Below, one piece after another: positions 1 through 43,519 of a DNA stretch of 64,000 bases (its first letter is position 1; each line of letters starts with the position of its first letter). The DNA lies in assembly GCF_988242995.1 (NCBI RefSeq), contig NZ_OZ547043.1; one strand, 5' to 3'. The translations under genes and the position numbers were made by a program. The notes under the pieces are model-generated. The model was given only the letters and a program-made list of their open reading frames with translations. It ran no database searches and had not been told where the DNA came from.

Positions 1-200
1 GTGCCAGTTATCGCTATAGTGGCGCTGGAGTCGGTTATCAGGTTGCCAGTGTGGTTGGCGGTGGATTTACACCTTTTATTGCCGCTGCACTCATCACTTA
101 CTTTGCCGGGAACTGGCATAGCGTCGCCATTTATTTGCTGGCTGGATGCCTGATTTCCGCAATGACCGCTTTGTTGATGAAAGACAGTCAACGCGCTTGA
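1..200 (+). CDS. shiA: 3' end of shikimate/MFS transporter gene (partial, start outside window)
   Basis: Frame ending at TGA 198..200 translates to ...AAALITYFAGNWHSVAIYLLAGCLISAMTALLMKDSQRA, a hydrophobic MFS C-terminus; position upstream of amn as in E. coli. Confidence 0.7.
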   Translation, partial: ASYRYSGAGVGYQVASVVGGGFTPFIAAALITYFAGNWHSVAIYLLAGCLISAMTALLMKDSQRA

Positions 201-301
201 TAGCCTGGCGAAGATCATCCGATCTTCGCCTTACACTTTTGTTTCACATTTCTGTGACATACTATCGGATGTGCGGTAATTGTATGGAACAGGAGACACA
301 C

Positions 302-1756
302 ATGAATAATAAGGGCTCCGGTCTGACCCCAGCTCAGGCACTGGATAAACTCGACGCGCTGTATGAGCAATCTGTAGTCGCATTACGCAACGCCATTGGC
401 AACTATATTACAAGTGGCGAATTACCTGATGAAAACGCCCGCAAACAAGGTCTTTTTGTCTATCCATCACTGACCGTAACCTGGGACGGTAGCACAACCA
501 ATCCCCCCAAAACGCGCGCATTTGGTCGCTTTACCCACGCAGGCAGCTACACCACCACGATTACTCGCCCTACTCTCTTTCGTTCGTATCTTAATGAACA
601 ACTTACGTTGCTGTATCAGGATTATGGTGCGCATATCTCTGTGCAACCCTCGCAGCATGAAATCCCCTATCCTTATGTCATCGATGGCTCTGAATTGACA
701 CTTGATCGCTCAATGAGCGCTGGGTTAACTCGCTACTTCCCGACAACAGAACTGGCGCAAATTGGCGATGAAACTGCAGACGGCATTTATCATCCAACTG
801 AATTCTCCCCGCTATCGCATTTTGATGCGCGCCGCGTCGATTTTTCCCTCGCACGGTTGCGCCATTATACCGGTACGCCAGTTGAACATTTTCAGCCGTT
901 CGTCTTGTTTACCAACTACACACGTTATGTGGATGAATTCGTTCGTTGGGGATGCAGCCAGATCCTCGATCCTGATAGTCCCTACATTGCCCTTTCTTGT
1001 GCTGGCGGGAACTGGATCACCGCCGAAACCGAAGCGCCAGAAGAAGCCATTTCCGACCTTGCATGGAAAAAACACCAGATGCCAGCATGGCATTTAATTA
1101 CCGCCGATGGTCAGGGTATTACTCTGGTGAATATTGGCGTGGGACCGTCCAATGCTAAAACCATCTGCGATCATCTGGCAGTGCTACGCCCGGATGTCTG
1201 GTTGATGATTGGTCACTGTGGCGGATTACGTGAAAGTCAGGCCATTGGCGATTATGTACTTGCACACGCTTATTTACGCGATGACCACGTTCTTGATGCG
1301 GTTCTGCCGCCCGATATTCCTATTCCGAGCATTGCTGAAGTGCAACGTGCGCTTTATGACGCCACCAAGCTGGTGAGTGGCAGGCCCGGTGAGGAAGTCA
1401 AACAGCGGCTACGTACAGGTACTGTGGTAACCACAGATGACAGGAACTGGGAATTACGTTACTCAGCTTCTGCACTTCGTTTTAACTTAAGCCGGGCCGT
1501 AGCAATTGATATGGAAAGTGCAACCATTGCCGCGCAAGGATATCGTTTCCGCGTGCCATACGGGACACTACTGTGTGTTTCAGATAAACCATTACATGGT
1601 GAGATTAAACTTCCCGGTCAGGCTAACCGTTTTTATGAAGGTGCTATTTCCGAACACCTGCAAATTGGCATTCGGGCGATCGATTTGCTGCGCGCAGAAG
1701 GCGACCGACTACATTCACGTAAATTACGAACCTTTAATGAGCCGCCGTTCCGATAG
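302..1756 (+). CDS. amn: AMP nucleosidase
   Basis: 484-aa product starting MNNKGSGLTPAQALDKLDALYEQ within ORF 146..1756; the longer N-terminal extension of the ORF is not supported. Confidence 0.9.
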   Translation: MNNKGSGLTPAQALDKLDALYEQSVVALRNAIGNYITSGELPDENARKQGLFVYPSLTVTWDGSTTNPPKTRAFGRFTHAGSYTTTITRPTLFRSYLNEQLTLLYQDYGAHISVQPSQHEIPYPYVIDGSELTLDRSMSAGLTRYFPTTELAQIGDETADGIYHPTEFSPLSHFDARRVDFSLARLRHYTGTPVEHFQPFVLFTNYTRYVDEFVRWGCSQILDPDSPYIALSCAGGNWITAETEAPEEAISDLAWKKHQMPAWHLITADGQGITLVNIGVGPSNAKTICDHLAVLRPDVWLMIGHCGGLRESQAIGDYVLAHAYLRDDHVLDAVLPPDIPIPSIAEVQRALYDATKLVSGRPGEEVKQRLRTGTVVTTDDRNWELRYSASALRFNLSRAVAIDMESATIAAQGYRFRVPYGTLLCVSDKPLHGEIKLPGQANRFYEGAISEHLQIGIRAIDLLRAEGDRLHSRKLRTFNEPPFR

Positions 1757-2098
1757 TAAGTTCTGAACCTTCTTATCAAAAATAGATGTGAAGGATTAAG
1801 TAAGACATCTGGCAAATAACCCGCAATAAACGCGGGCTGTTTGCTTCCTTGGGCGGATACGAGTTTTATTATCGTCTTAATGATTTCCACATATTAAAAG
1901 CAAGTATGCTTTCAAAACACAATTATAAAAAATCCCGCCAACAATATATGTTTTTATAAAAATAAATATATGATTATGGCTTTAGAATATTTTTATTTCT
2001 AATAGACGAGATTTTTCCTGTTATGATATAATATGCCGAATTAACACATGTTAACGATTTACCAGTAATGTAAATAAATTTTCGAGGAGATCATTCCA

Positions 2099-2815
2099 GT
2101 GGGACGTAAATGGGCCAATATTGTTGCTAAAAAAACGGCTAAAGACGGTGCAACGTCTAAAATTTATGCAAAATTCGGTGTAGAAATCTATGCTGCTGCT
2201 AAACAAGGTGAACCCGATCCAGAATTAAACACATCTTTAAAATTCGTTATTGAACGTGCAAAGCAGGCACAAGTTCCAAAGCACGTTATTGATAAAGCAA
2301 TTGATAAAGCCAAAGGCGGCGGAGATGAAACGTTCGTGCAGGGACGTTATGAAGGCTTTGGTCCTAATGGCTCAATGATTATCGCCGAGACATTGACTTC
2401 AAATGTTAACCGTACGATTGCTAACGTTCGCACAATTTTCAATAAAAAAGGCGGCAATATCGGAGCGGCAGGTTCTGTCAGCTATATGTTTGACAATACG
2501 GGTGTGATTGTATTTAAAGGATCAGACCCTGACCATATTTTTGAAATTTTACTTGAAGCTGAAGTTGATGTTCGTGATGTGACTGAAGAAGAAGGTAACA
2601 TTGTTATTTATACTGAACCTACTGACCTTCATAAAGGAATCGCGGCTCTAAAAGCATCTGGAATCACTGAGTTCTCAACAACAGAATTAGAAATGATTGC
2701 TCAATCTGAAGTTGAGCTTTCCCCAGAAGATTTAGAAATCTTTGAAGGGCTTGTTGATGCCCTTGAAGATGACGACGATGTACAAAAAGTTTATCATAAC
2801 GTCGCAAATCTCTAA
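2099..2815 (+). CDS. yeeN: YebC/PmpR-family probable transcriptional regulator
   Basis: 238 aa, GTG start preceded by [23 protein letters not shown]... typical YebC-family N-terminus. Confidence 0.9.
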
Positions 2816-2824
2816 TTATATTTT

Positions 2825-2860
2825 AAAGAAATCTGTCTTTATGGCAGATTTCTTTAATCT
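2825..2860 (+). terminator. putative hairpin terminator after yeeN
   Basis: Inverted repeat aaagaaatctg / cagatttcttt immediately after the yeeN stop. Confidence 0.4.
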
Positions 2861-3269
2861 CATAGAATCCTTATAAAAAATATAATGTTTAACTCATCAT
2901 ATTGCTTATAAAAAATCCCCGTCCCCAGAGAAATAATATTTATTAAAATGGCAGGTCTTCTTTTTCTGATTACCGAAGACAAAGTGGCAATTACGTATAG
3001 TTTCCCGATAAAGACGCGACAGCTACATCCCGCATAAGGCATTTTTCTCTTTATCTTTGTACGGTACTTCATGGAACAGAATTTTTGACCTTGTGAATCG
3101 TGATGTCTGTTGGGGAGGGGCAATTTGCTCACTGAAGCGTGAGACTCAATTAAGCGCACGAAACACAGAAATCAAAAAACCCGGTCACTTTTTTACAAGG
3201 TAACCGGGTAAAAATAATTTTTATTTTTTAACTGCTTTGAGACTCATAGAGATGTCTCAAAACTAAAAT

Positions 3270-3345
3270 TTGGCTCCTCTGACTGGACTCGAACCAGTGA
3301 CATACGGATTAACAGTCCGCCGTTCTACCGACTGAACTACAGAGG
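3270..3345 (-). tRNA. asnW: tRNA-Asn
   Basis: 76 nt, exact reverse complement of the tRNA-Asn sequence found at 5095..5170 and 7504..7579; ends CCA. Confidence 0.95.
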
Positions 3346-3446
3346 AATCGTGAGAACGAGGCGAATATTAGCGATGCCCACCCACAATGTCAAAGCCTGT
3401 TTTTTAAATTTGAAATCGTTTGCTGAAATAATCTGCATTTTGTCGT

Positions 3447-4934
3447 TTATTCCGACACAACTGGCTTTTTTTCACACTTTTGCGACTCGGATCGAGGGTA
3501 TTTCCATAGCCAACGTCCAGTAACCATTCGCCAGTAAAACAGCACGGCCCGCACAGCCCAGTCGGCAAACATTCCCATCCAGACACCAACCACACCCCAG
3601 CCAAGCATGATTCCCAGCACATAACCGACTACAACCCGACAACCCCACATGCTCAACATCGAAACCCACATGGCGTAACGGGCATCACGAGCACCTTTAA
3701 ATCCAGCGGGTAGCACCCATGAGGCGGACCAAATAGGCATAAATAAAGCATTTAGCCAAATCAGAATCACAACGACATGTTTAACCTGTGGATCCTGGGT
3801 GTAAAACGATGCCATAAGCCCGGCAAAGGGAGCCGTTAGCCAGGCGATGGCCGTTAATCCAAGAGTGGACAGCCAGAACACATGCCGCAACTGAATCTCT
3901 GCTTGCGCTATCTGCCCTACCCCCAACCTTCGGCCTGTAATGATCGTAGAAGCAGAGCCGAGCGCACTTCCGGGTAAGTTGATAAGAGCCGCAATTGAAA
4001 ACGCGATAAAATTTCCGGCAATAACACTGGTCCCCATTCCGGCAACGAACATTTGGGTTAATAACCGACCACTGGTAAATAACACTGATTCGACACTCGC
4101 TGGAATACCAATCCCCATGACTTCCCAGATAATGCTAAAATTCAGCGGTTTAAAATAGCTCTTTAACGAAATCCTTAGCGCAGGATTAAAACCTATCGCC
4201 AGCACCCACAAAATTGCAACTGCGCCAATATAACGAGAAATGGTTAAACCCAACCCAGCCCCGACAAATCCCAGTCCCGGCCAGGAGAAAAGGCCGTAAA
4301 TCAATATGCCGCTAATAATAATATTAAGAATATTCAGGCTACCGTTAATCAGTAGCGGTATTTTCGTATTCCCTGCACCACGAAGTGCCCCACTACCAAT
4401 CAAAGTGATGGCAGCTGCTGGATAACTGAGTACCGTCAGCTCCAGATAAGTCAACGCCAGTGCTTTAACTTCTGTCGTGGCATCACCCGCGACGAAATCA
4501 ATAATTTGTTCGCCAAAATGATGAATAAGCGTTGCCAACAGTACGGCAAACAACGTCATGATCACCAATGACTGCCGCGTCGCCACCCTCGCTCGTCGTC
4601 GATCCCGCTTACCGAGACTAAATGCCACAACGACAGTGGTACCAAGATCGATAGCAGCAAAAAAAGCCATAATGACCATATTGAAGCTGTCCGCCAATCC
4701 CACGCCGGCCATCGCATCTTTTCCCAGCCAGCTGACCAGAAAAGTGCTCAGGACACCCATCAACAGGACACAGGCATTCTCCATGAAGATAGGAACAGCA
4801 AGCGGGGTTATCTCGCGCCAGAACAACACTTTGTAGCTCTTGCGTTTAGCGTGCCAGCGAGTGCCGTGAACAACCTGGCGTAAAGCAGAGGAGATATTCA
4901 AAGCCGACCTTAATTGCAGAAAGTGAAACCACAT
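3447..4934 (-). CDS. yeeO: MATE-family efflux transporter (FMN/FAD exporter YeeO)
   Basis: ORF 3447..5087; start chosen at internal Met (MWFHFLQLRS...) giving about 495 aa; multi-pass membrane protein. Confidence 0.8.
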   Translation of the reverse strand: MWFHFLQLRSALNISSALRQVVHGTRWHAKRKSYKVLFWREITPLAVPIFMENACVLLMGVLSTFLVSWLGKDAMAGVGLADSFNMVIMAFFAAIDLGTTVVVAFSLGKRDRRRARVATRQSLVIMTLFAVLLATLIHHFGEQIIDFVAGDATTEVKALALTYLELTVLSYPAAAITLIGSGALRGAGNTKIPLLINGSLNILNIIISGILIYGLFSWPGLGFVGAGLGLTISRYIGAVAILWVLAIGFNPALRISLKSYFKPLNFSIIWEVMGIGIPASVESVLFTSGRLLTQMFVAGMGTSVIAGNFIAFSIAALINLPGSALGSASTIITGRRLGVGQIAQAEIQLRHVFWLSTLGLTAIAWLTAPFAGLMASFYTQDPQVKHVVVILIWLNALFMPIWSASWVLPAGFKGARDARYAMWVSMLSMWGCRVVVGYVLGIMLGWGVVGVWMGMFADWAVRAVLFYWRMVTGRWLWKYPRSESQKCEKKPVVSE

Positions 4935-12779: not shown

Positions 12780-14186
12780 ACCTTACGCAGCTCCGGGAGC
12801 TTCGTTATATCGCGGATTAAAGAACCTGAAACAGTCAGACTGTATCTTGGATTTTACAAACTCTTATTCGGGGATTTTAGCCCCATGACGATTTACGCAG
12901 TGAGCTGGCCTCTTTCTATATGCAGGTATTGGCGCATTCTGACCTCCTGAATTCTTTTACGAGGATCACTCATTCCGTGTCTGACTGCTTCAGGGTTTAA
13001 TTTTGCTTCTGCTGACTGAATGATGATTGGGCAGCAAGTGCAATATCCCACATAAATCCAGTCAACTCACGAGCCACCGCCGTAATGGCTACTTGTGATT
13101 TTTTCCCTTTTGCTGTCAGACTTCGGTAACGAGAACACAATCGTTGTTGAGCTTTCCATGCAATATCTTTGGAATATTGTGTTACAGAATCCGGTCGGTA
13201 ATATATAAGCCATGCACCAACTTTTGCAGGTGTACGATAAGACCAGGCGGCTTCGTAAAGCAGACGTCTCAGTTCGCTGTTTCCAACTTTTGTTATTCCC
13301 CTGGGACGAATGCTGTTTCCACTGGAATATTCCCCTGGAACCAGTCCCAGAAAAGCCATGAGTTGTTTGGGACTGGAAAATCGTGAAAAATCACCCAGTT
13401 CAGCAACCAGGGTTATTGCGGTTAGCTGACCAACACCTTTAAGGGCCTGTAACTGGCAGACCAGATTGCACAGAGACCACTCAGGTAACAGGCGGGATAT
13501 TTCCTGGTCGAGTTGAAGTATGCGATCTTCAATCTGCTCCAGACTCTGACAATAGTGTTGAAAAGCAATCTGTTGAGATGGCTGACTAAATGATTGATTG
13601 GCTAACCAGGTTCGATGTTTGCCGGTCCAGTGCTTCCCTGCATAACGTTTGTCTGTTCGCAATAGCATGCTCAGAATTCGCTGTCGGGCAACTCTGCTGT
13701 CTCGTTTAGCTGCTGCACGGGCTCTGATTAGATCCCGCATAGCTTCATGAGTCAGGTCAGGGATCCAGACAGGGGTAAGTTCACCAGCCCGCAGTAACCT
13801 GGCAAGAGAAATTGCGTCCCGATGATCATTTTTGATTCTGTCTGTCGGTGATTTTGGTATCCGGGAAGGGGCAATAACCTGGCATTTTATATTCATCGCT
13901 GTGAGTTGATGATATAGCCCAAAACCACAGGGGCCAGCCTCATAGCAGGAAAGAATGTTTCCGTAAAGTCCCTGCAATTTCTGAAATAATCGACGTACAG
14001 CCTGGGCTTCGTTGTTAATCGTACCATAATAACGAACTTCGCCAAGCCGTTCAGGTGCAGCAATAGCAACCGCCAACGTTTCTTTATGTACATCCAGCCC
14101 GATGTAAGCTGCAATATTTTCCGAATGCATAATGACCTCCTCTGGAATATCCCACCAATGCTATAGTGAGTATATAAAGGTCATAC
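12780..14186 (-). mobile_element. IS110-family insertion sequence (boundaries approximate, 3' end not determinable by eye)
   Basis: Transposase 12997..14130; upstream end abuts a truncated IS66 tnpC remnant at about 14187; no terminal inverted repeats expected for this family. Confidence 0.4.
12997..14130 (-). CDS. IS110-family transposase (DEDD/RuvC-like)
   Basis: 377 aa; N-terminal YIGLDVHKETLAVAI motif typical of IS110-family transposases; RBS GAGGAGG upstream. Confidence 0.8.
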   Translation of the reverse strand: MHSENIAAYIGLDVHKETLAVAIAAPERLGEVRYYGTINNEAQAVRRLFQKLQGLYGNILSCYEAGPCGFGLYHQLTAMNIKCQVIAPSRIPKSPTDRIKNDHRDAISLARLLRAGELTPVWIPDLTHEAMRDLIRARAAAKRDSRVARQRILSMLLRTDKRYAGKHWTGKHRTWLANQSFSQPSQQIAFQHYCQSLEQIEDRILQLDQEISRLLPEWSLCNLVCQLQALKGVGQLTAITLVAELGDFSRFSSPKQLMAFLGLVPGEYSSGNSIRPRGITKVGNSELRRLLYEAAWSYRTPAKVGAWLIYYRPDSVTQYSKDIAWKAQQRLCSRYRSLTAKGKKSQVAITAVARELTGFMWDIALAAQSSFSQQKQN

Positions 14187-14189
14187 CAT

Positions 14190-14412
14190 CTTTATGTTCT
14201 TCGGCGGCGAGCGCAGTGCACTGTTGTATGGGCTTATCGGCACCTGCCGTCTGAACGACATTGATCCGGAAGCGTATCTGCGCCATATCCTGAGCGTACT
14301 GCCGGAATAACCTTCCAACCGTATTGATGAACTCCTGCCATGGAACGTAGTTCTCACCAATAAATAAGCATCAATATGATTCTCCATTAACGCTTACCTT
14401 TTCTCAGGCTAT
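14190..14412 (+). mobile_element. truncated IS66-family 3' end (tnpC C-terminal remnant plus terminal repeat), diverged
   Basis: Translates to FFGGERSALLYGLIGTCRLNDIDPEAYLRHILSVLPE and PSNRIDELLPWNVVLTNK, matching the C-terminus of TnpC at 23289..24902; ends with degenerate IS66 terminal repeat ...cgcttac. Confidence 0.6.
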
Positions 14413-14505
14413 TTTTGCTTTTTTTTGCTTTTCCCCGCCACTTTATGGTGATTATCACATCAATATACATCGATAGATATTAACGTAACTGCAGTGAGGT
14501 GAAGC

Positions 14506-15720
14506 ATGAAATTTGAACGCCATCATGAAATATTGAAACGACTCAGTAAATTCGGTTCTGTAAAAGTATCCGATCTGTCCAATAGCCTCAATGTAACGAA
14601 AGAAACTATTCGTTCAGATCTTAATGAACTTGCCAGGCTTGGCTATCTGACTCGATGTCATGGCGGTGCTTTTATCGTCCTAGACTCGCTTGATACTATT
14701 GCGAAAAATGAAATCGCTTATGCGCTTGAAAATTATGATACAGCCCAGGGAATAAAAAAAGGCCACTCAACTATGAAAAGTCAAGTATGCGTTATTGGTT
14801 CGTTTAATGTTGATATCATCAGTTATTTGCCGAGGCTTCCCACTATCGGAGAATCGCTTCTGGCAAGTAATTTTATATTTTCACCGGGGGGAAAAGACTG
14901 TAACCAGGCGCTGGCAGCAAGCTTTGCCGATACTGATGTTTATTTCATAACAAAAGTAGGTACAGATCACTTTAGTGATTATGCGATCAACTTTATGAAT
15001 TCGTCTAAGATTTATAAAAGTATAATTTATCAAACGAAAGAAACGCAAACCGAAACTGCCACGATCCTTGTTAATGAAGGTACTGGCGATAATGTTATTG
15101 CGATCTATCCCGGTGCCAACATGACAATGTCGCCCGATGAAATAACTATTCAGAAAGAAGCGATTATTAATTCTGATGTCATACTTCTGCAGCTCGAAAC
15201 AAATTATACCGCTCTGCAACAAGCGATCACATTGGCGCAAAAAAACAGTATCCCGGTCATTATTAACCCGGCACCCTATAATGATATCGTCAACGAACTT
15301 ATTCAGGATGTTGATTATATCACCCCCAATGAAACAGAAGCTGGTTTACTGTCCGGCATAGACGTACACGATCTTGAATCAGCTAAACGAGCTGCAGAAG
15401 CTATCCACAATAAAGGGGTAAAAAACACGGTTATCACGCTCGGTAGCAAGGGCTCGCTCGCATTTGATGGCAAAAAATTCATTCATTCGCCAGCGTTTCC
15501 AGCGGTCGTTAAAAATACGGCAGGAGCCGGGGATGCGTTTAACGGCTCTCTGGCATCAGGACTTGCGAAAGGAAAATCACTGGAATCAGCACTGTGTTAT
15601 GCCAGCGCCTTTGCATCCCTAGCGGTGGAGACAAGCAATGCTTCCGACATGCCTGAACATGAATCTGTGATACATCGAATTCAGAGTATACATTATCAGC
15701 AAACTATTTTTACGCATTAA
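14506..15720 (+). CDS. DeoR-type HTH domain fused to PfkB/ribokinase-family carbohydrate kinase
   Basis: 404 aa; N-terminal DeoR-like HTH (VKVSDLSNSLNVTKETIRSDLNELARLGYLTRCHGGA) then PfkB body with GAGDAF signature near C-terminus. Confidence 0.7.
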   Translation: MKFERHHEILKRLSKFGSVKVSDLSNSLNVTKETIRSDLNELARLGYLTRCHGGAFIVLDSLDTIAKNEIAYALENYDTAQGIKKGHSTMKSQVCVIGSFNVDIISYLPRLPTIGESLLASNFIFSPGGKDCNQALAASFADTDVYFITKVGTDHFSDYAINFMNSSKIYKSIIYQTKETQTETATILVNEGTGDNVIAIYPGANMTMSPDEITIQKEAIINSDVILLQLETNYTALQQAITLAQKNSIPVIINPAPYNDIVNELIQDVDYITPNETEAGLLSGIDVHDLESAKRAAEAIHNKGVKNTVITLGSKGSLAFDGKKFIHSPAFPAVVKNTAGAGDAFNGSLASGLAKGKSLESALCYASAFASLAVETSNASDMPEHESVIHRIQSIHYQQTIFTH

Positions 15721-15733
15721 GAAGGGACAGAGA

Positions 15734-16492
15734 ATGAATAACACCAAAAAATCACTAAAAGTGCTCTTTATTGGGGAATCCTGGCATATTCATATGATTC
15801 ATTCAAAAGGATATGACAGTTTTACCTCAAGTAAATATGAAGAAGGTGCGACCTGGTTACTCCAGTGTCTGAAAAATAGTCAGGTAGATGTCACCTATAT
15901 GCCAGCACATACGGTACAAATTGCCTTCCCTGAAGATGTGGCACAGTTAGAACAATATGATGCCATCGTTATTAGTGATATTGGTAGTAATACTTTCCTG
16001 CTACAAAATGATACTTTTTATCAGCTTCGCATAAAACCAAACGCTCTCGAACTGATTAAAGAATATGTGAATAACGGTGGTGGGTTATTGATGATTGGCG
16101 GCTATCTCTCATTCATGGGAATTGAAGCAAAAGCCAATTATAAAAATACAGTTCTGGCTGATGTGCTCCCGGTTACGATGTTAGATGGTGACGATCGTGT
16201 CGAAAAACCAGAGGGTGTTATTGCACAGCCATCACAACCTGAACATCCAGTTATTAAAGGGTTCTCTGAATATCCTTTTTTCCTAGGTTATAACCGGGCG
16301 ATCGCTAAAGAAAATGCTGAGGTGGTATTAACAATAAACAACGCTCCATTACTGGTCTTTGGTAACTATCACAACGGGAAAATAGCCTGCTTTATGAGTG
16401 ACTGTTCACCGCACTGGGGTACACAGCAGTTTATGTCCTGGCCGTTCTATACCGCGTTGTGGGTAAATATACTGACTCATATTGCAAGATAA
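15734..16492 (+). CDS. hypothetical protein, possibly class-I glutamine amidotransferase-like fold
   Basis: 252 aa ORF immediately downstream of the kinase gene (14-nt gap); fold assignment is pattern-based only. Confidence 0.5.
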   Translation: MNNTKKSLKVLFIGESWHIHMIHSKGYDSFTSSKYEEGATWLLQCLKNSQVDVTYMPAHTVQIAFPEDVAQLEQYDAIVISDIGSNTFLLQNDTFYQLRIKPNALELIKEYVNNGGGLLMIGGYLSFMGIEAKANYKNTVLADVLPVTMLDGDDRVEKPEGVIAQPSQPEHPVIKGFSEYPFFLGYNRAIAKENAEVVLTINNAPLLVFGNYHNGKIACFMSDCSPHWGTQQFMSWPFYTALWVNILTHIAR

Positions 16493-16548
16493 TAATAATA
16501 ATGGGGTAACTCCAGTTACTCCATTTACTATAATAGAAGGATTGATGT

Positions 16549-17514
16549 ATGAAAAAGAATAAGTACTCAACTCCCTTATGGATGCTTGCCACGATTCTTG
16601 CGGGTATGCTCTCCCCTATGCAATCAGCGGTGAATGGTCAATTAGGTCACTGGTTACAGGATGGTAATGCATGCGCAGTTATCTCCTTTGCCAGTGGTTT
16701 AGTCGTGATGTTTTTTATTATTATGGCGCGAAAAGAAACCCGGCAACAATTTGCGGCAATTCCTTCTCTGATTAAAAACCGAAAAGTTCCTCTCTGGAAC
16801 TGGTTTGCCGGTCTCTGTGGAGCGATGGTGGTATTTTCTGAAGGCGCATCAGCCAGCGCACTCGGGGTCGCAACGTTTCAAACCGCACTGATCTCCGCGC
16901 TATTGCTGTCTGGTTTACTTTGCGATCGCTTTGGTATCGGTGTCGACGAGAAAAAATACTTTACCCCTTATCGCATCATCGGTGCATTATTTGCGGTTAT
17001 TGCTACGATTTTTGTTGTGTCACCTCAGTGGCATTCTACCTCTTTCATCTTACTTGCCATTCTTCCGTTCTTAGCTGGTTTGCTTGCAGGATGGCAGCCC
17101 GCTGGAAATGCAAAAGTAGCTGAAGCTACGGGATCCATGCTGGTTTCAATCACCTAGAATTTCATCGTTGGATTTTGTGTTTTAGGCACAGCGCTAGCTA
17201 TTCGTGTCGCATTAGGGCACGTCACTGTTCAATTACCAGATGTCTGGTGGATGTATCTTGGCGGCCCGCTTGGACTAATGTCTATCGGTTTAATGGCCAT
17301 TTTGGTCAGAGGTCTGGGGTTACTGATGCTGGGGGTTGCTTCAACGGCGGGCCAGTTACTGGGATCAGTATTGATTGACGTATTAATTCCATCGCTGGGC
17401 AATAGCGTTTATCTGGTCACGATCATCGGAACACTGTTTGCACTGGTCGGTGCAATTGTTACCACTATTCCGGAATACAGAACCTCGAAAACAATGAAGA
17501 AAATGGAGGTATAA
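16549..17514 (+). pseudogene. DMT/DUF606-type membrane transporter with single in-frame amber stop (TAG at 17155..17157)
   Basis: ORFs 16549..17157 and 17251..17514 are in the same frame; only one TAG interrupts a continuous about 320-codon hydrophobic reading frame. Confidence 0.5.
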
Positions 17515-17516
17515 TC

Positions 17517-18551
17517 ATGAAAGATTATCTACAAACTGTGACGGGCCCCGTCGCCCGTGAAGATATGGGGCTAACACTTCCTCATGAACATCTGTTCAAC
17601 GATCTTTCCTCTGTTGTGGATGCTCCTTGCTATCCTTTTTCACAACGGCTTGTTGATAAAAAAGTCACGGCAGAAATCCAGTGGGCATTAAAACACGATC
17701 CTTATTGCTGCGCTGATAATATGGACCGCAAACCTATTGAAGATGTGATCTTCGAAATTAATAACTTTATCTCGCTCGGTGGTCGCACCATTGTTGATGC
17801 CACAGGGTCTGAGTCTATCGGACGAGATGCGCAGGCATTACGAGAAGTCGCATTAAAAACAGGTCTGAATATTGTTGCTTCCTCCGGTCCCTACCTGGAA
17901 AAATTTGAAAGCCAGAGAATTCATAAAACGGTTGATGAACTGGCGACAACGATCGATAAAGAATTGAATCAAGGGATTGGCGATACGGATATTCGTGCCG
18001 GAATGATCGGTGAAATAGGTGTTTCACCGACATTTACCGAAGCCGAGCATAACAGCTTGCGGGCTGCCTCGCTGGCACAGATTAACAATCCTCATGTGGC
18101 GATGAATATTCACATGCCGGGCTGGCTTCGTCGCGGTGATGAAGTACTCGACATTGTGTTAGGTGAAATGGGCGTCTCGCCAAATAAAGTCTCTCTCGCA
18201 CACTCGGATCCGTCAGGAAAAGACGTGGCGTATCAGCGGAAAATGCTTGATAAAGGTGTCTGGCTGGAATTCGACATGATTGGCCTAGACATTACCTTCC
18301 CGAAAGAGGGAATAGCGCCAGGGGTGCAGGAGACTGCCGATGCCGTCGCTCATCTCATTGAGTTGGGTTACGCCGATCAGCTTGTTCTCAGCCACGATGT
18401 CTTCCTTAAACAAATGTGGGCTAAAAATGGCGGTAATGGCTGGGGATTTGTTCCAGATGTTTTTCTGGCCTATCTGGCGGAGCGCGGCGTCGATAAAACG
18501 ATCCTCAAAAAACTCTGTATCGATAATCCCGGACGATTATTGACCGCATAA
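17517..18551 (+). CDS. phosphotriesterase-related protein (PHP/amidohydrolase family)
   Basis: 344 aa; N-terminal GLTLPHEHL metal-binding motif typical of phosphotriesterase homology proteins. Confidence 0.8.
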   Translation: MKDYLQTVTGPVAREDMGLTLPHEHLFNDLSSVVDAPCYPFSQRLVDKKVTAEIQWALKHDPYCCADNMDRKPIEDVIFEINNFISLGGRTIVDATGSESIGRDAQALREVALKTGLNIVASSGPYLEKFESQRIHKTVDELATTIDKELNQGIGDTDIRAGMIGEIGVSPTFTEAEHNSLRAASLAQINNPHVAMNIHMPGWLRRGDEVLDIVLGEMGVSPNKVSLAHSDPSGKDVAYQRKMLDKGVWLEFDMIGLDITFPKEGIAPGVQETADAVAHLIELGYADQLVLSHDVFLKQMWAKNGGNGWGFVPDVFLAYLAERGVDKTILKKLCIDNPGRLLTA

Positions 18552-18595
18552 AACCATTATCCCCCGGCACATTGCGCCGGGGGATGTCAATTAAT

Positions 18596-18957
18596 ACCCC
18601 GCCGTTAAATCATCCACCAAGCGCGAGTCGGATGCGCCGTACAACTCACCATCCGACCCAACCATAATGCTTTGCGTGCTGCCCATCGCCTCATTCAGCG
18701 CCACTTTCTGACCTTTTGCATCCAGCAGCTTGAGCGTATCCGGACTAAACCCTTTTCAACACGCAGCTCGTCCGGCAACCACTGATAGTGGAAACGAGGC
18801 GCATTGGTCGCTTCGGCAACATTCATTCCACAATTGATGCTGTTCACCACCATTTGCAGCACGGTAGTGATGATCCAGCTACCGGTAACAAAGTGAGTAC
18901 ATAAAGGCCATACTGTCACGAACAGTGCAAAAGTGGCTCTTCCGCAACCTGGGTGAA
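18596..18957 (-). pseudogene. 3' remnant of a gamma-glutamyltranspeptidase gene
   Basis: Minus-strand translation gives ...NAPRFHYQWLPDELRVEKG and, after a frameshift, GFSPDTLKLLDAKGQKVALNEAMGSTQSIMVGSDGELYGASDSR, a GGT C-terminus. Confidence 0.6.
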
Positions 18958-20600
18958 GATTTTCATGCCAGTGGACTCATTACCCTCCGCCTAAGTAGTT
19001 CAAGTCCGGCTCGACCATACATCTGGCGTATCAGCACCTTCAGGCGATTTACATGACCTTCGACAACACCAGTACTCCAGCGACTGCTGATTGCCTCACA
19101 TATAGCCGCAGCATCAGCTTCCATCCCCGCAGCTACGCACCGAAGTTCTGCTGAGCCGCTTTCGTGGACCCGAGTGAACCAGCTGCTTAGCTGTGATTTA
19201 TTTTAGGTTTTCAGAATACGGTAGAACTCGAGTACCAGTTGCTGCGCTATTTTCAACTCCGGTTCTTTTTCACACATCAGACTAATAAATCGGAAAGCAT
19301 AATTTTCTTCACCCCTGATTATTCTCCAGGGCATCAACCAGCGGCTTACCCGGGACACTGAAGGAAGTCTTGCGGCAGTAGTAACCGGTGGGATCCAGCC
19401 TTTACGCCATTTGGCAACAGCATCCCTGACGATGGTTTCACTGCCTGTAACCCCCCTGGCCACCATTTCCCGCCATATCCGGCCGGAGTTATAATTACCA
19501 CATTCTCGTTGCTCTTTTAACCACTCCCTCCATGGGTCCAGAAGCCCTCGCTTTGGAGGCCTAGTTGACATTTCAGGGAATGTTCCTGAACCCACCCAGC
19601 GACTGACTGTCACTCGCGACAGGCCTGTAATACGGGATATTTCCCTGAAACTACATCCCTTGTTATGCAGGGCCATAACCTCTGTCCAACGCTGATGCCG
19701 TTTTTTGCGGATGTGCTGTTTAAGGCGTTCCAGACGACGGAGCGATGCTACAGGCACAGATATTTCTGGCTCAGGTGATTTCTTCAGTGATAACTCTCTG
19801 ACAACAAGACGTATCAGAGGCATATGTCTGTACATCATTCGTTCAGGCTCATCACCAATATTTTTTAGCAGGTGCCATCGATCGGCCACCTGTCTGGCCT
19901 GAGGTGCACCTTCACGTGCTGCTGTCGCATAGACTCCACTGCGATCACGCGAGACAACCTGTATTTCCGGATATTTTCTGAACCAGGTCGCCAGCGTACG
20001 CTGATCACGGCCGGGAAGCAGGACGAGGGGACGGTGAGTATCAAGATTGACTATTAACATACCGCAGCAGTGGCCCCGATGCCACGCCCACTCATCAATA
20101 CCGACATGAGGCGCGCCTGACTGTTTCGTCTCCGGGGTATTGATAACCCTGCGAAGAAGAGTATCAGCACTGCAACGGAGACCCGCTGCCGTTGCAGCCC
20201 GTTTTCCAGCCTCACCTCCAGCTATTAATCCCAGTTGACGTTGTAAATTTTGTAACGCCTGTGAAGACTGCTGGTGTGAACCGGCGAAGGGAGCAAGCGA
20301 CTCGGCAAAAATTTTACGTGAACAAGCCGGGTTACGGCAGTACCAGTGGCGGACGGAAAATACAAGCCATAGCGTCTGCCCTGAGCAGGGTAGATGCTGT
20401 ATCCGGCGCCGACGACAACTATGAACAGAGTCGCTACGCTTAAAGCATTCAGGACATTGTGCTGTTTTGCGTTTTCCGTGGAGATGGAGGGTTATACCGT
20501 CAGAGCTAATAATTTGTCGACTGCATCGCCATCCGCAAGGTAACTGTAGAAGTGTCTTAAGAGAGTGCATTGCGTTGCCCATAACTTAAAACAGCTTAGA
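18958..20600 (-). mobile_element. ISL3-family element with disrupted transposase (boundaries approximate)
   Basis: Transposase reading frame broken near 19200; no terminal repeats identified by eye. Confidence 0.4.
19203..20582 (-). CDS. ISL3-family-like transposase (N-terminal and central part)
   Basis: 459-aa ORF with Cys-rich zinc-finger region, GIDEWAWHRGH...LIVNLDTHRPLVLL DDE-like core and VADRWHLLKN; the conserved ISL3 C-terminal motif (STGVVEGHVNRLKVLIRQMYGRAGLELLRRRV) lies in another frame at 18960..19200. Confidence 0.55.
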   Translation of the reverse strand: MGNAMHSLKTLLQLPCGWRCSRQIISSDGITLHLHGKRKTAQCPECFKRSDSVHSCRRRRIQHLPCSGQTLWLVFSVRHWYCRNPACSRKIFAESLAPFAGSHQQSSQALQNLQRQLGLIAGGEAGKRAATAAGLRCSADTLLRRVINTPETKQSGAPHVGIDEWAWHRGHCCGMLIVNLDTHRPLVLLPGRDQRTLATWFRKYPEIQVVSRDRSGVYATAAREGAPQARQVADRWHLLKNIGDEPERMMYRHMPLIRLVVRELSLKKSPEPEISVPVASLRRLERLKQHIRKKRHQRWTEVMALHNKGCSFREISRITGLSRVTVSRWVGSGTFPEMSTRPPKRGLLDPWREWLKEQRECGNYNSGRIWREMVARGVTGSETIVRDAVAKWRKGWIPPVTTAARLPSVSRVSRWLMPWRIIRGEENYAFRFISLMCEKEPELKIAQQLVLEFYRILKT

Positions 20601-41359: not shown

Positions 41360-41839
41360 ATGAAAACCGTTTCTCAGAATACCCCCACAATTTATTCAGC
41401 TACAACACCAGAGAATAATCCGCCTCAGTTGGTTGCCAGCCTCGTCCCTGATGAACAGCGCATCAGCTTCTGGCCGCAGCATTTTGGCCTCATTCCACAG
41501 TGGGTGACCCTGGAGCCCCGTGTCTTCGGCTGGATGGACCGTCTGTGCGAAGACTACTGCGGTGGTATCTGGAATCTGTACACCCTGAACAACGGCGGGG
41601 CATTTATGGCACCCGAACCGGATGACGATGATGACGAAACATGGGTACTGTTCAATGCCATGAACGGTAACCGCGCAGAAATGAGCCCGGAAGCCGCCGG
41701 TATTGCCGCCTGTCTGATGACGTACAGTCATCATGCCTGTCGTACGGAGAATTATGCCATGACGGTCCATTATTACCGGTTGCGGGATTACGCCCTGCAG
41801 CATCCGGAATGCAGCGCCATTATGCGCATCATCGACTGA
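41360..41839 (+). CDS. antirestriction protein (KlcA/ArdB-like, YfjX/YeeR-position)
   Basis: 159 aa with acidic stretch PEPDDDDDETW; RBS AAGGAG. Confidence 0.7.
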   Translation: MKTVSQNTPTIYSATTPENNPPQLVASLVPDEQRISFWPQHFGLIPQWVTLEPRVFGWMDRLCEDYCGGIWNLYTLNNGGAFMAPEPDDDDDETWVLFNAMNGNRAEMSPEAAGIAACLMTYSHHACRTENYAMTVHYYRLRDYALQHPECSAIMRIID

Positions 41840-41854
41840 ATGGAGAGAAGCACA

Positions 41855-42331
41855 ATGCAACAACTTTCCTTTCTGCCCGGAGAGATGACGCCCGGCGAGC
41901 GCAGCCTCATTCAGCGGGCCCTGAAAACCCTGGACCGCCATCTTCATGAACCCGGCGTGGCCTTCACCTCCACCCGTGCAGCACGGGAATGGCTGATTCT
42001 GAACATGGCGGGACTGGAGCGTGAAGAATTCCGGGTGCTGTATCTGAACAACCAGAATCAGCTGATTGCCGGTGAAACCCTCTTCACCGGCACCATCAAC
42101 CGCACGGAAGTCCATCCCCGGGAAGTGATTAAACGCGCCCTGTACCACAATGCCGCTGCCGTGGTACTGGCACACAATCACCCGTCCGGTGAAGTCACAC
42201 CCAGTAAGGCAGACCGGCTTATCACCGAACGTCTGGTACAGGCACTGGGCCTGGTGGATATCCGGGTGCCGGACCATCTGATAGTCGGTGGCAACCAGGT
42301 TTTCTCCTTTGCCGAACATGGTCTGCTTTAA
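41855..42331 (+). CDS. yeeS: RadC-like JAB-domain protein
   Basis: Start at MQQLSFL with GGAGAG RBS; JAMM motif HNHPSGEVTPSKAD. Confidence 0.8.
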   Translation: MQQLSFLPGEMTPGERSLIQRALKTLDRHLHEPGVAFTSTRAAREWLILNMAGLEREEFRVLYLNNQNQLIAGETLFTGTINRTEVHPREVIKRALYHNAAAVVLAHNHPSGEVTPSKADRLITERLVQALGLVDIRVPDHLIVGGNQVFSFAEHGLL

Positions 42332-42393
42332 CCCTTCACAACCACATCACACCTGTTTTCACTTTTATCTTCTGTCTTCAGAGGTATCCCATT

Positions 42394-42615
42394 ATGAAAA
42401 TTATCACCCGTGGTGAAGCCATGCGTATTCACCAACAACATCCGACATCCCGTCTTTTTCCGTTCTGTACCGGTAAATACCGCTGGCACGGCAGTGCTGA
42501 AGCGTATACCGGTCGTGAAGTGCAGGATATTCCCGGTGTGCTGGCCGTGTTTGCTGAACGCCGTAAGGACAGTTTTGGTCCGTATGTCCGGCTGATGAGC
42601 GTCACCCTGAACTGA
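42394..42615 (+). CDS. yeeT: DUF987 protein YeeT
   Basis: 73 aa MKIITRGEAMRIHQQHPTSRLFPFCTGKYRWHG... Confidence 0.75.
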   Translation: MKIITRGEAMRIHQQHPTSRLFPFCTGKYRWHGSAEAYTGREVQDIPGVLAVFAERRKDSFGPYVRLMSVTLN

Positions 42616-43145: not shown

Positions 43146-43519
43146 ATGAAAACATTACCTGTATTACCCGGGCAGGCGGCCAGTTCTCGCCCGTCTCCTG
43201 TTGAAATCTGGCAGATACTGCTGTCCCGACTGCTGGACCAGCACTATGGCCTCACACTGAATGACACACCTTTTGCCGATGAACGTGTGATTGAGCAGCA
43301 TATTGAGGCAGGCATTTCACTGTGTGATGCGGTGAACTTTCTCGTGGAAAAATACGCGCTGATGCTACCGACCAGCCGGGATTCAGCGCCTGTACCCGCT
43401 CTCAGTTAATAAACAGCATCGATATCCTCCGGGCTCGCAGGGCGACCGGCCTGATGACCCGCGACAATTACAGAACGGTAAATAACATTACCCTGGGTAA
43501 GTATCCGGAGGCGAAATGA
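43146..43519 (+). pseudogene. cbtA: CbtA (YeeV) toxin gene with frameshift
   Basis: N-terminal 73 aa typical of CbtA, then frame shifts ([19 protein letters not shown] stop); the expected C-terminus NSIDILRARRATGLMTRDNYRTVNNITLGKYPEAK is encoded in another frame ending at 43519. Confidence 0.7.

Follow-up and report, generated by a model that had tools for sequence, protein, structure and literature searches.

An amber allele of a DMT-family transporter gene in a decaying, horizontally acquired island of Escherichia coli

Here we analyse a gene of the DMT transporter family that a single amber codon interrupts in a 64,000-nucleotide stretch of Escherichia coli DNA (contig NZ_OZ547043.1 of RefSeq assembly GCF_988242995.1; the whole stretch is called the window below). 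The interruption, W203amber, is a genuine and common natural polymorphism that is already known from standard annotation, and the locus is an unremarkable nonsense pseudogene, annotated as such before, in an island that was acquired horizontally and is decaying. We hold it highly probable that the amber codon ends the transporter, that the fragment left behind is non-functional, that the allele had one origin and then spread, and that the gene cluster around it is drifting.

The interrupted frame and its ancestral codon

Translation of the locus (Table 1) gave 322 codons in a single plus-strand frame, in which the TAG at codon 203 is the sole internal stop and a TAA (17512-17514) is the terminal one. 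The listing of open reading frames contains two ORFs in this frame, one of 202 aa (16549..17157, stop included) and one of 87 aa; no stop interrupts the frame from 17158 up to its end at 17514, and the ATG at 17251 is the first ATG, GTG or TTG past the TAG. An earlier note on this DNA had claimed that the two ORFs share one frame parted only by the TAG and that their combined product would be a polytopic protein of about 320 aa. Both claims stand, as the joined product has 321 aa and a hydropathy scan returned hydrophobic helices along its whole length, the interrupted hydrophobic stretch being residues 195-223 (GSMLVSIT[W]NFIVGFCVLGTALAIRVALG). The pairing of the two ORFs is not due to chance because both flanks of the TAG align without gaps to single full-length proteins with identities of 92-99%, and because RefSeq has a 966-nt pseudogene at exactly these coordinates in a genome that is identical to the window over 14400-18600. 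Residues N204-W234 would be missing even if translation restarted downstream.

Table 1. Positions of the transporter locus, its parts and its neighbours in the window
Feature	Position	Strand	Remarks
rikA homologue, DeoR-HTH and PfkB kinase	14506..15720	+	Pfam HTH_DeoR and PfkB; first gene of the cluster; intact
GATase1_like protein, STM3548 homologue	15734..16492	+	PF07090, E 1e-111; PDB 2gk3, E 7e-145; intact
DMT family transporter pseudogene	16549..17514	+	321 sense codons; two DMT_YdcZ repeats; one internal stop
Predicted truncated product, 202 aa	16549..17154	+	Whole repeat 1, first helix of repeat 2 and beginning of the next
Synonymous SNP at P159, CCT versus CCG	17025	+	T in 9/9 TAG sequences, G in 7/7 TGG sequences
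Amber codon TAG, W203*	17155..17157	+	Derived G-to-A at 17156; W in homologues, TGG in relatives
31 codons (N204-W234) without in-frame ATG, GTG or TTG	17158..17250	+	Rest of the interrupted helix; hydrophobic over 204-223
Residual C-terminal ORF, 87 aa	17251..17514	+	Second half of repeat 2 only
PTE-family hydrolase (STM3550/Pmi1525 homologue)	17517..18551	+	PF02126; PDB 3rhg/4qsf (Pmi1525), E 3e-174; intact
G+C-rich hairpin, 12 pairs	18559..18585	.	Terminator-like consensus match only; directly after the PTE gene
Gamma-glutamyltransferase 3' remnant, 293 bp	18591..18883	-	RefSeq pseudogene; an intact 580-aa ggt lies there in Salmonella
cbtA	about 43146-43519		Annotated 'frameshifted' in CEA601S (L016 41448-41821); block 100% identical to the window

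The joined protein was matched by the Pfam family PF04657 (DMT_YdcZ) in two stretches of the one polypeptide (E 9.8e-46), with a score of 155.9 bits against a gathering cut-off of 24. When the pieces were scanned separately against Pfam, repeat 1 fell at residues 10-154 and repeat 2 at about residues 169-303; the alignment of the two halves to each other was weak, with 23% identity. The TAG at residue 203 lies 34 residues into repeat 2, the boundary between the repeats being at about 154-169, and the Pfam match is limited to residues 10-154 in the 202-aa fragment and to profile positions 69-139 of 140 in the 87-aa ORF. No NCBIfam family was found for the joined protein. The STM3549 orthologue group is characterized by an unbroken frame of about 315-333 codons, whereas the frame of the window copy breaks at codon 203, and the window copy is best read as a pseudogene of this group rather than as a functional member of it.

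Searching a large protein collection with the DMT protein yielded 299 matches at E <= 1e-10, the full-length ones being single proteins of 306-342 aa, with identities of 99% in E. coli, 93% in Citrobacter, 92% in Salmonella, 86% in Klebsiella and 84% in Proteus and, among the more distant ones, of 79% in Anaerobiospirillum, 67% in Bifidobacterium and 64-67% in Lactobacillaceae; Pectobacterium was also matched. In an alignment of 20 sequences, the site is spanned by 17 full-length homologues (309-395 aa) and by a 285-aa partial E. coli sequence, and the column of the TAG holds W in 17/17 of the former and in the latter, within the near-invariant motif GSMLVSITWNFIVGF. The aligned sequences with this W include those of Citrobacter, Salmonella, Klebsiella, Pectobacterium, Proteus, Anaerobiospirillum, Bifidobacterium and Lactobacillaceae. 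The sole aligned sequence that ends at the stop (P0110, 202 aa, 99% identical, 685 member sequences) is the same E. coli amber allele called as an ORF. Besides P0110, no homologue split at codon 203 was found among the best 120 of the 299 matches, the rest of these being single ORFs of 306-342 aa or partial sequences. The codon opposite the TAG is TGG in Salmonella, in Proteus and in seven E. coli genomes of the sample. Because the homologues carry W and TGG here, the lesion is W203amber, a change from TGG to TAG through a single G-to-A transition at 17156. The locus hence combines a single in-frame stop, gap-free alignment to orthologues and an identifiable ancestral sense codon, as a nonsense pseudogene does. 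Aligning the gene to intact homologues was the check that the earlier note had proposed, and the single proteins of 309-333 aa with W at the stop, together with the position of that stop inside repeat 2, support its view that one amber codon pseudogenised the transporter gene.

Comparison with Salmonella gave pN values of 0.036 upstream and 0.062 downstream of the TAG, with pS at 0.77, and pN/pS values of 0.047 (codons 1-202) and 0.080 (codons 204-321); these ratios are raw, with no JC-corrected dS, since the synonymous sites are saturated in this comparison. Such values indicate that both sides of the TAG belong to one gene that was under strong purifying selection until recently.

Frequency and origin of the amber allele

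Of 5426 complete genomes, 2740 contain a match to the 2.9-kb region, with identities of 95-100% that reach 99% or more in nearly all of them. We counted the alleles by exact 81-mers centred on the stop: 2038 complete records of E. coli contain the site, and of these 596 (29%) have the TAG form and 1418 (70%) the TGG form, and about 24 have other variants. Public assemblies give a similar ratio, with 685 members in the cluster of the 202-aa protein and 1648 in that of the intact 321-aa protein. The genomes with the amber allele come from humans, pigs, cattle, poultry, wild birds, frogs, wastewater and seawater in many countries. In the eight TAG genomes that we fetched (CEA601S, 07-4299, 720632, YJ4, CE0011b, FDN-9, Nord122 and 405) PGAP labels the gene "DMT family transporter, pseudo, internal stop" in 8/8 cases, and where the codon is TGG it gives an intact protein (WP_000739821.1, WP_000739816.1 or WP_000739817.1), so that standard annotation already captures the finding.

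To trace its origin, the segment 14400-18600 of the window was aligned to 15 fetched genomes (16 sequences in total, with 62 variable sites). In this sample, the synonymous 17025T is fully linked to 17156A at a distance of 131 nt, and TAG occurs on three flanking haplotypes, namely the window type, which carries T286S at a position that is mostly T in the homologues; the YJ4/CE0011b type, which carries M12V and T64I and has flanks like those of the TGG haplotype PEC178; and the Nord122/405 type. The same pair of markers on differing backgrounds argues for one mutational origin followed by spread rather than for recurrent mutation, and the 16 sequences thus suggest that the amber allele arose a single time and was spread through descent and recombination. 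Within the DMT frame, the nine TAG alleles sampled are free of disabling lesions other than the stop, meaning either that the allele is young or that the frame is not drifting freely. At codon 286, which lies in the conserved motif GNTVY and is Thr in most homologues, the window-type TAG haplotypes have AGC (Ser, 17405) and the other E. coli alleles ACC (Thr). The changes T286S, M12V and T64I on TAG haplotypes may be a faint sign, from few sites, of constraint being relaxed after the stop.

The gene cluster and its island

The transporter gene sits between the GATase1_like and PTE genes in the window, as it does in Salmonella, in Proteus and in an Anaerobiospirillum-like contig, and Salmonella and Proteus also share the order of all four genes, their transporter being a single intact ORF. 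The name rikA is used for the first gene in some RefSeq records. Ribose kinase activity was recently shown for STM3547 (RikA) by authors who found no functional studies of STM3548-3550 and who suggested a pathway for an unknown substrate (PMC13432705).

Among the loci compared, a unit composed of the GATase1_like gene, a two-repeat DMT_YdcZ gene and a hydrolase gene, in this order, is conserved across phyla (L019 4186-7003, L020 4132-7000, L023 5237-8013, L021 5061-8223 and L022 5172-8110). The hydrolase of the unit is of the PTE family in Salmonella, Proteus and the Anaerobiospirillum-like contig, and in Bifidobacterium and Lentilactobacillus an enzyme of the choloylglycine hydrolase family (CBAH, PF02275) replaces it. 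This swap of unrelated hydrolases hints that the substrate of the transporter cluster could be an amide or an ester. The DeoR-PfkB kinase RikA occurs in Enterobacterales only among these loci, which suggests that the kinase may be a late addition to the cluster. Pmi1525 has esterase activity, and our literature search returned no more than one passing mention of this protein. The PTE enzyme of the window is also matched by PDB 9efa, a 'phosphotriesterase-related protein' (E 1e-36), and mammalian PTER is an N-acetyltaurine hydrolase (PMC11374699).

The spacer between the GATase and DMT genes opens with the run TAATAATAATAAT (16490-16503), which overlaps the GATase stop codon, and it measures 56 nt in window-type genomes and 53 nt in SE15, PG20180057 and R6. 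A scan of 14200-18900 for promoter consensus returned 8 promoter-like sites against a shuffle expectation of 9.3, the hairpin after the PTE gene, which is likely the end of the operon, being the only noteworthy element. Scanning 14000-19200 against Rfam (E <= 0.1) gave no match, and no RNA element consequently accounts for the TAG. The PTE gene has a GGAGG of its own (17505-17509) within the 3' end of the DMT frame, 7 nt ahead of its ATG, and should for this reason still be translatable despite the TAG upstream; Rho-dependent polarity over the 357 untranslated nt is possible.

The cluster is located in an island between cobU and tmaR, a site that in K-12 MG1655 holds the CP4-44 cryptic prophage and lacks the cluster. 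In the colinear genome CEA601S we counted 15 pseudogenes or fragments among the 40 annotated CDS features from cobU to tmaR, including transposases of IS4, IS66 and ISL3, an antirestriction protein, DUF987, DUF957 and the frameshifted cbtA, so that pseudogenisation does extend across the island, as had been proposed from the window's own sequence. The window is 100% identical to CEA601S over the operon and 99.5% identical over the first 38 kb, and this difference of about 0.5% outside the operon shows that its strain is not CEA601S. Two segments (37971-38867, about 0.9 kb, and 41674-42466, about 0.8 kb) are present in the window and absent from CEA601S.

The genes flanking the DMT pseudogene are intact in the window. 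Further lesions in the operon were found in five of the eight fetched TAG genomes, with an internal stop in rikA in YJ4, rikA::IS2 in CE0011b, frameshifts in both rikA and the GATase gene in Nord122 and 405, and a rearrangement of the PTE gene in FDN-9. Among the seven TGG genomes, four are fully intact and three have operon lesions: in 675SK2 and ET745 a deletion associated with IS1 has removed rikA, the GATase gene and the first 11 transporter codons, and in CUVET17 an IS66-family insertion (ISEc23) truncates the PTE gene. Since lesions occur in TGG genomes as well, the additional decay of the operon is not specific to the TAG allele. E. coli can evidently do without the whole cluster, which is eroding in this species by several routes, the amber codon among them. 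In 675SK2 and ET745 the IS1 directly adjoins cobU (1539-3199 in both L010 and L013), and PGAP takes an internal start and predicts an 'intact' DMT protein of 310 aa (WP_000881502.1), so that a further inactivated allele probably goes unflagged in the annotation.

The blastn alignment between the window and the Salmonella locus (75.9% identity, 14411-18874) extends into the ggt remnant, which is present in 14 of the 15 fetched E. coli genomes; in CUVET17-1418 ISEc23 is inserted at its position. This segment of the island was apparently excised from a chromosomal context like that of Salmonella or Citrobacter, with the ggt remnant as a putative relic of the donor.

Mechanism, alternatives and known systems

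The course of events that we favour starts from a gene for an inner-membrane transporter of one polypeptide with two DMT_YdcZ repeats, in which the G-to-A change at 17156 turned the near-invariant W203 codon TGG into TAG. Translation would stop at codon 203 and leave a 202-aa fragment without most of repeat 2. In DMT proteins with ten helices and two repeats, the two five-helix repeats have opposite orientations, and a single fragment of fixed topology should for that reason not rebuild the transporter; the fragment would presumably be unable to form a two-repeat transporter, and transport of the substrate, be it uptake or export, would be lost. The remaining genes of the cluster would then drift under weak or absent selection, and the allele, born once, would reach several haplotype backgrounds through descent and recombination.

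A sequencing or assembly error in a gene that is really intact, an alternative raised together with the original observation, could in principle produce a difference of one base such as this one. However, 596 independent records of complete E. coli genomes, which stem from many laboratories, hosts and countries, share the very same TAG 81-mer, the synonymous change at 17025 goes together with TAG over a distance of 131 nt, and the 202-aa ORF has its 685-member cluster in public assemblies. The 81-mer and the cluster effectively exclude error at the population level, and we give this explanation a vanishingly small probability. It is just as improbable that two separate half-size DUF606/YdcZ genes naturally lie side by side here, with the TAG as the normal end of the first, the circumstance under which the earlier note would have given up its reading. 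Single-repeat YdcZ proteins do exist and the Pfam model describes one repeat of 140 positions, but the stop falls past the repeat boundary and inside repeat 2, no more than the second half of the profile is matched by the downstream ORF, the 31 codons after the stop offer no start codon, each homologue in Enterobacterales, Bifidobacterium and Lactobacillaceae consists of one ORF that has W at the site, and 70% of the E. coli genomes that carry the site have TGG.

That the gene still works, either through amber suppression or low-level readthrough of UAG or through an N-terminal single-repeat fragment acting as a dimer, is in our view very unlikely. In its favour, the downstream frame is free of lesions in 9/9 sampled TAG alleles, the neighbouring genes are intact in the window, the N-terminal fragment retains one whole repeat, and transporters can be needed in small amounts only. 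Against this, the stop is derived and is conserved in no other species compared; other genera and 70% of the E. coli genomes with the site have TGG, a distribution that differs from the conservation among orthologues that marks programmed readthrough. No suppressor tRNA gene was found in the window, whose tRNA genes are three tRNA-Asn(GUU) genes. Of 5423 genomes, 155 have an exact match to the supE-type glnV(CUA) allele, and among the 40 of these that were listed, 39 can be recognised as laboratory strains of K-12 or their derivatives; MG1655 does not have the DMT locus. Moreover, a fragment of fixed topology plus an extra helix would not reproduce repeats of opposite orientation, TAG haplotypes have the private amino acid changes M12V, T64I and T286S, and five of the eight fetched TAG genomes carry the further operon lesions described above. 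We also dismissed pyrrolysine insertion or another recoding of TAG, as the relatives have TGG and E. coli is not known to have such a system. Loss of the transporter might instead be adaptive, with lost uptake being advantageous in some niches and the allele having for this reason reached 29% and several haplotypes. The high frequency, the one origin combined with three flanking backgrounds and the independent inactivations of the cluster in other lineages (IS1 deletion, IS2 and IS66-type insertions, frameshifts) speak for it, yet neutral decay of a dispensable acquired island on successful clones predicts the same pattern, IS remnants and pseudogenes abound in the island, and the sample comprises only 16 sequences. 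Taking both sides into account, we consider adaptive loss unlikely, and we regard as similarly doubtful the wider proposal that the allele is not merely neutral, being instead an old loss-of-function variant of one origin that recombination carried to at least three backgrounds and that rose to about 29% because lost uptake is advantageous in some hosts, with other lineages having disabled the cluster independently by IS elements and frameshifts.

Beyond correct annotation, the importance of W203amber, which we take to be a loss-of-function allele in a drifting cluster, is slight. It confirms the cobU-tmaR island as an eroding, horizontally acquired segment, and the roughly 600 TAG and 1400 intact complete genomes form a natural knock-out set at one and the same site, which has modest practical value for finding the substrate of the rikA/STM3548-3550 cluster.

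Placing the locus among known systems, the sequence in the window is identical to that of the RefSeq/PGAP 'internal stop' pseudogene and receives the same call, with no difference between them. The intact E. coli alleles WP_000739821.1, WP_000739816.1 and WP_000739817.1 lie at this very locus and at these coordinates, are more than 99% identical to the window in nucleotides, and differ from it at codon 203 (TGG instead of TAG), codon 159 (CCG instead of CCT) and residue 286 (T instead of S). YdcZ, the founder of PF04657 in K-12, is a half-size protein with a single repeat; it belongs to the same Pfam family, whose full 140-position model is matched by either half of the window protein, but the window gene encodes a fused two-repeat protein whose truncation point yields no clean single-repeat protein. 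The closest parallel in another genus is STM3549 of Salmonella enterica, which shares 92% amino acid identity over the full length and the same two-repeat DMT_YdcZ architecture, and which is intact (323 aa) with TGG at the position where the window copy has W203amber. The Salmonella cluster from rikA (STM3547) to STM3550 also has the composition of that in the window, with the DeoR-PfkB kinase, the GATase1_like protein, the DMT protein and the PTE hydrolase followed by ggt on the opposite strand, and differs in its location, as it adjoins ggt/ugpQ whereas the cluster of the window lies in the mobile cobU-tmaR island. Judged by gene order and similarity, the window cluster is the E. coli counterpart of STM3547-STM3550, and its interrupted DMT gene is the counterpart of STM3549.
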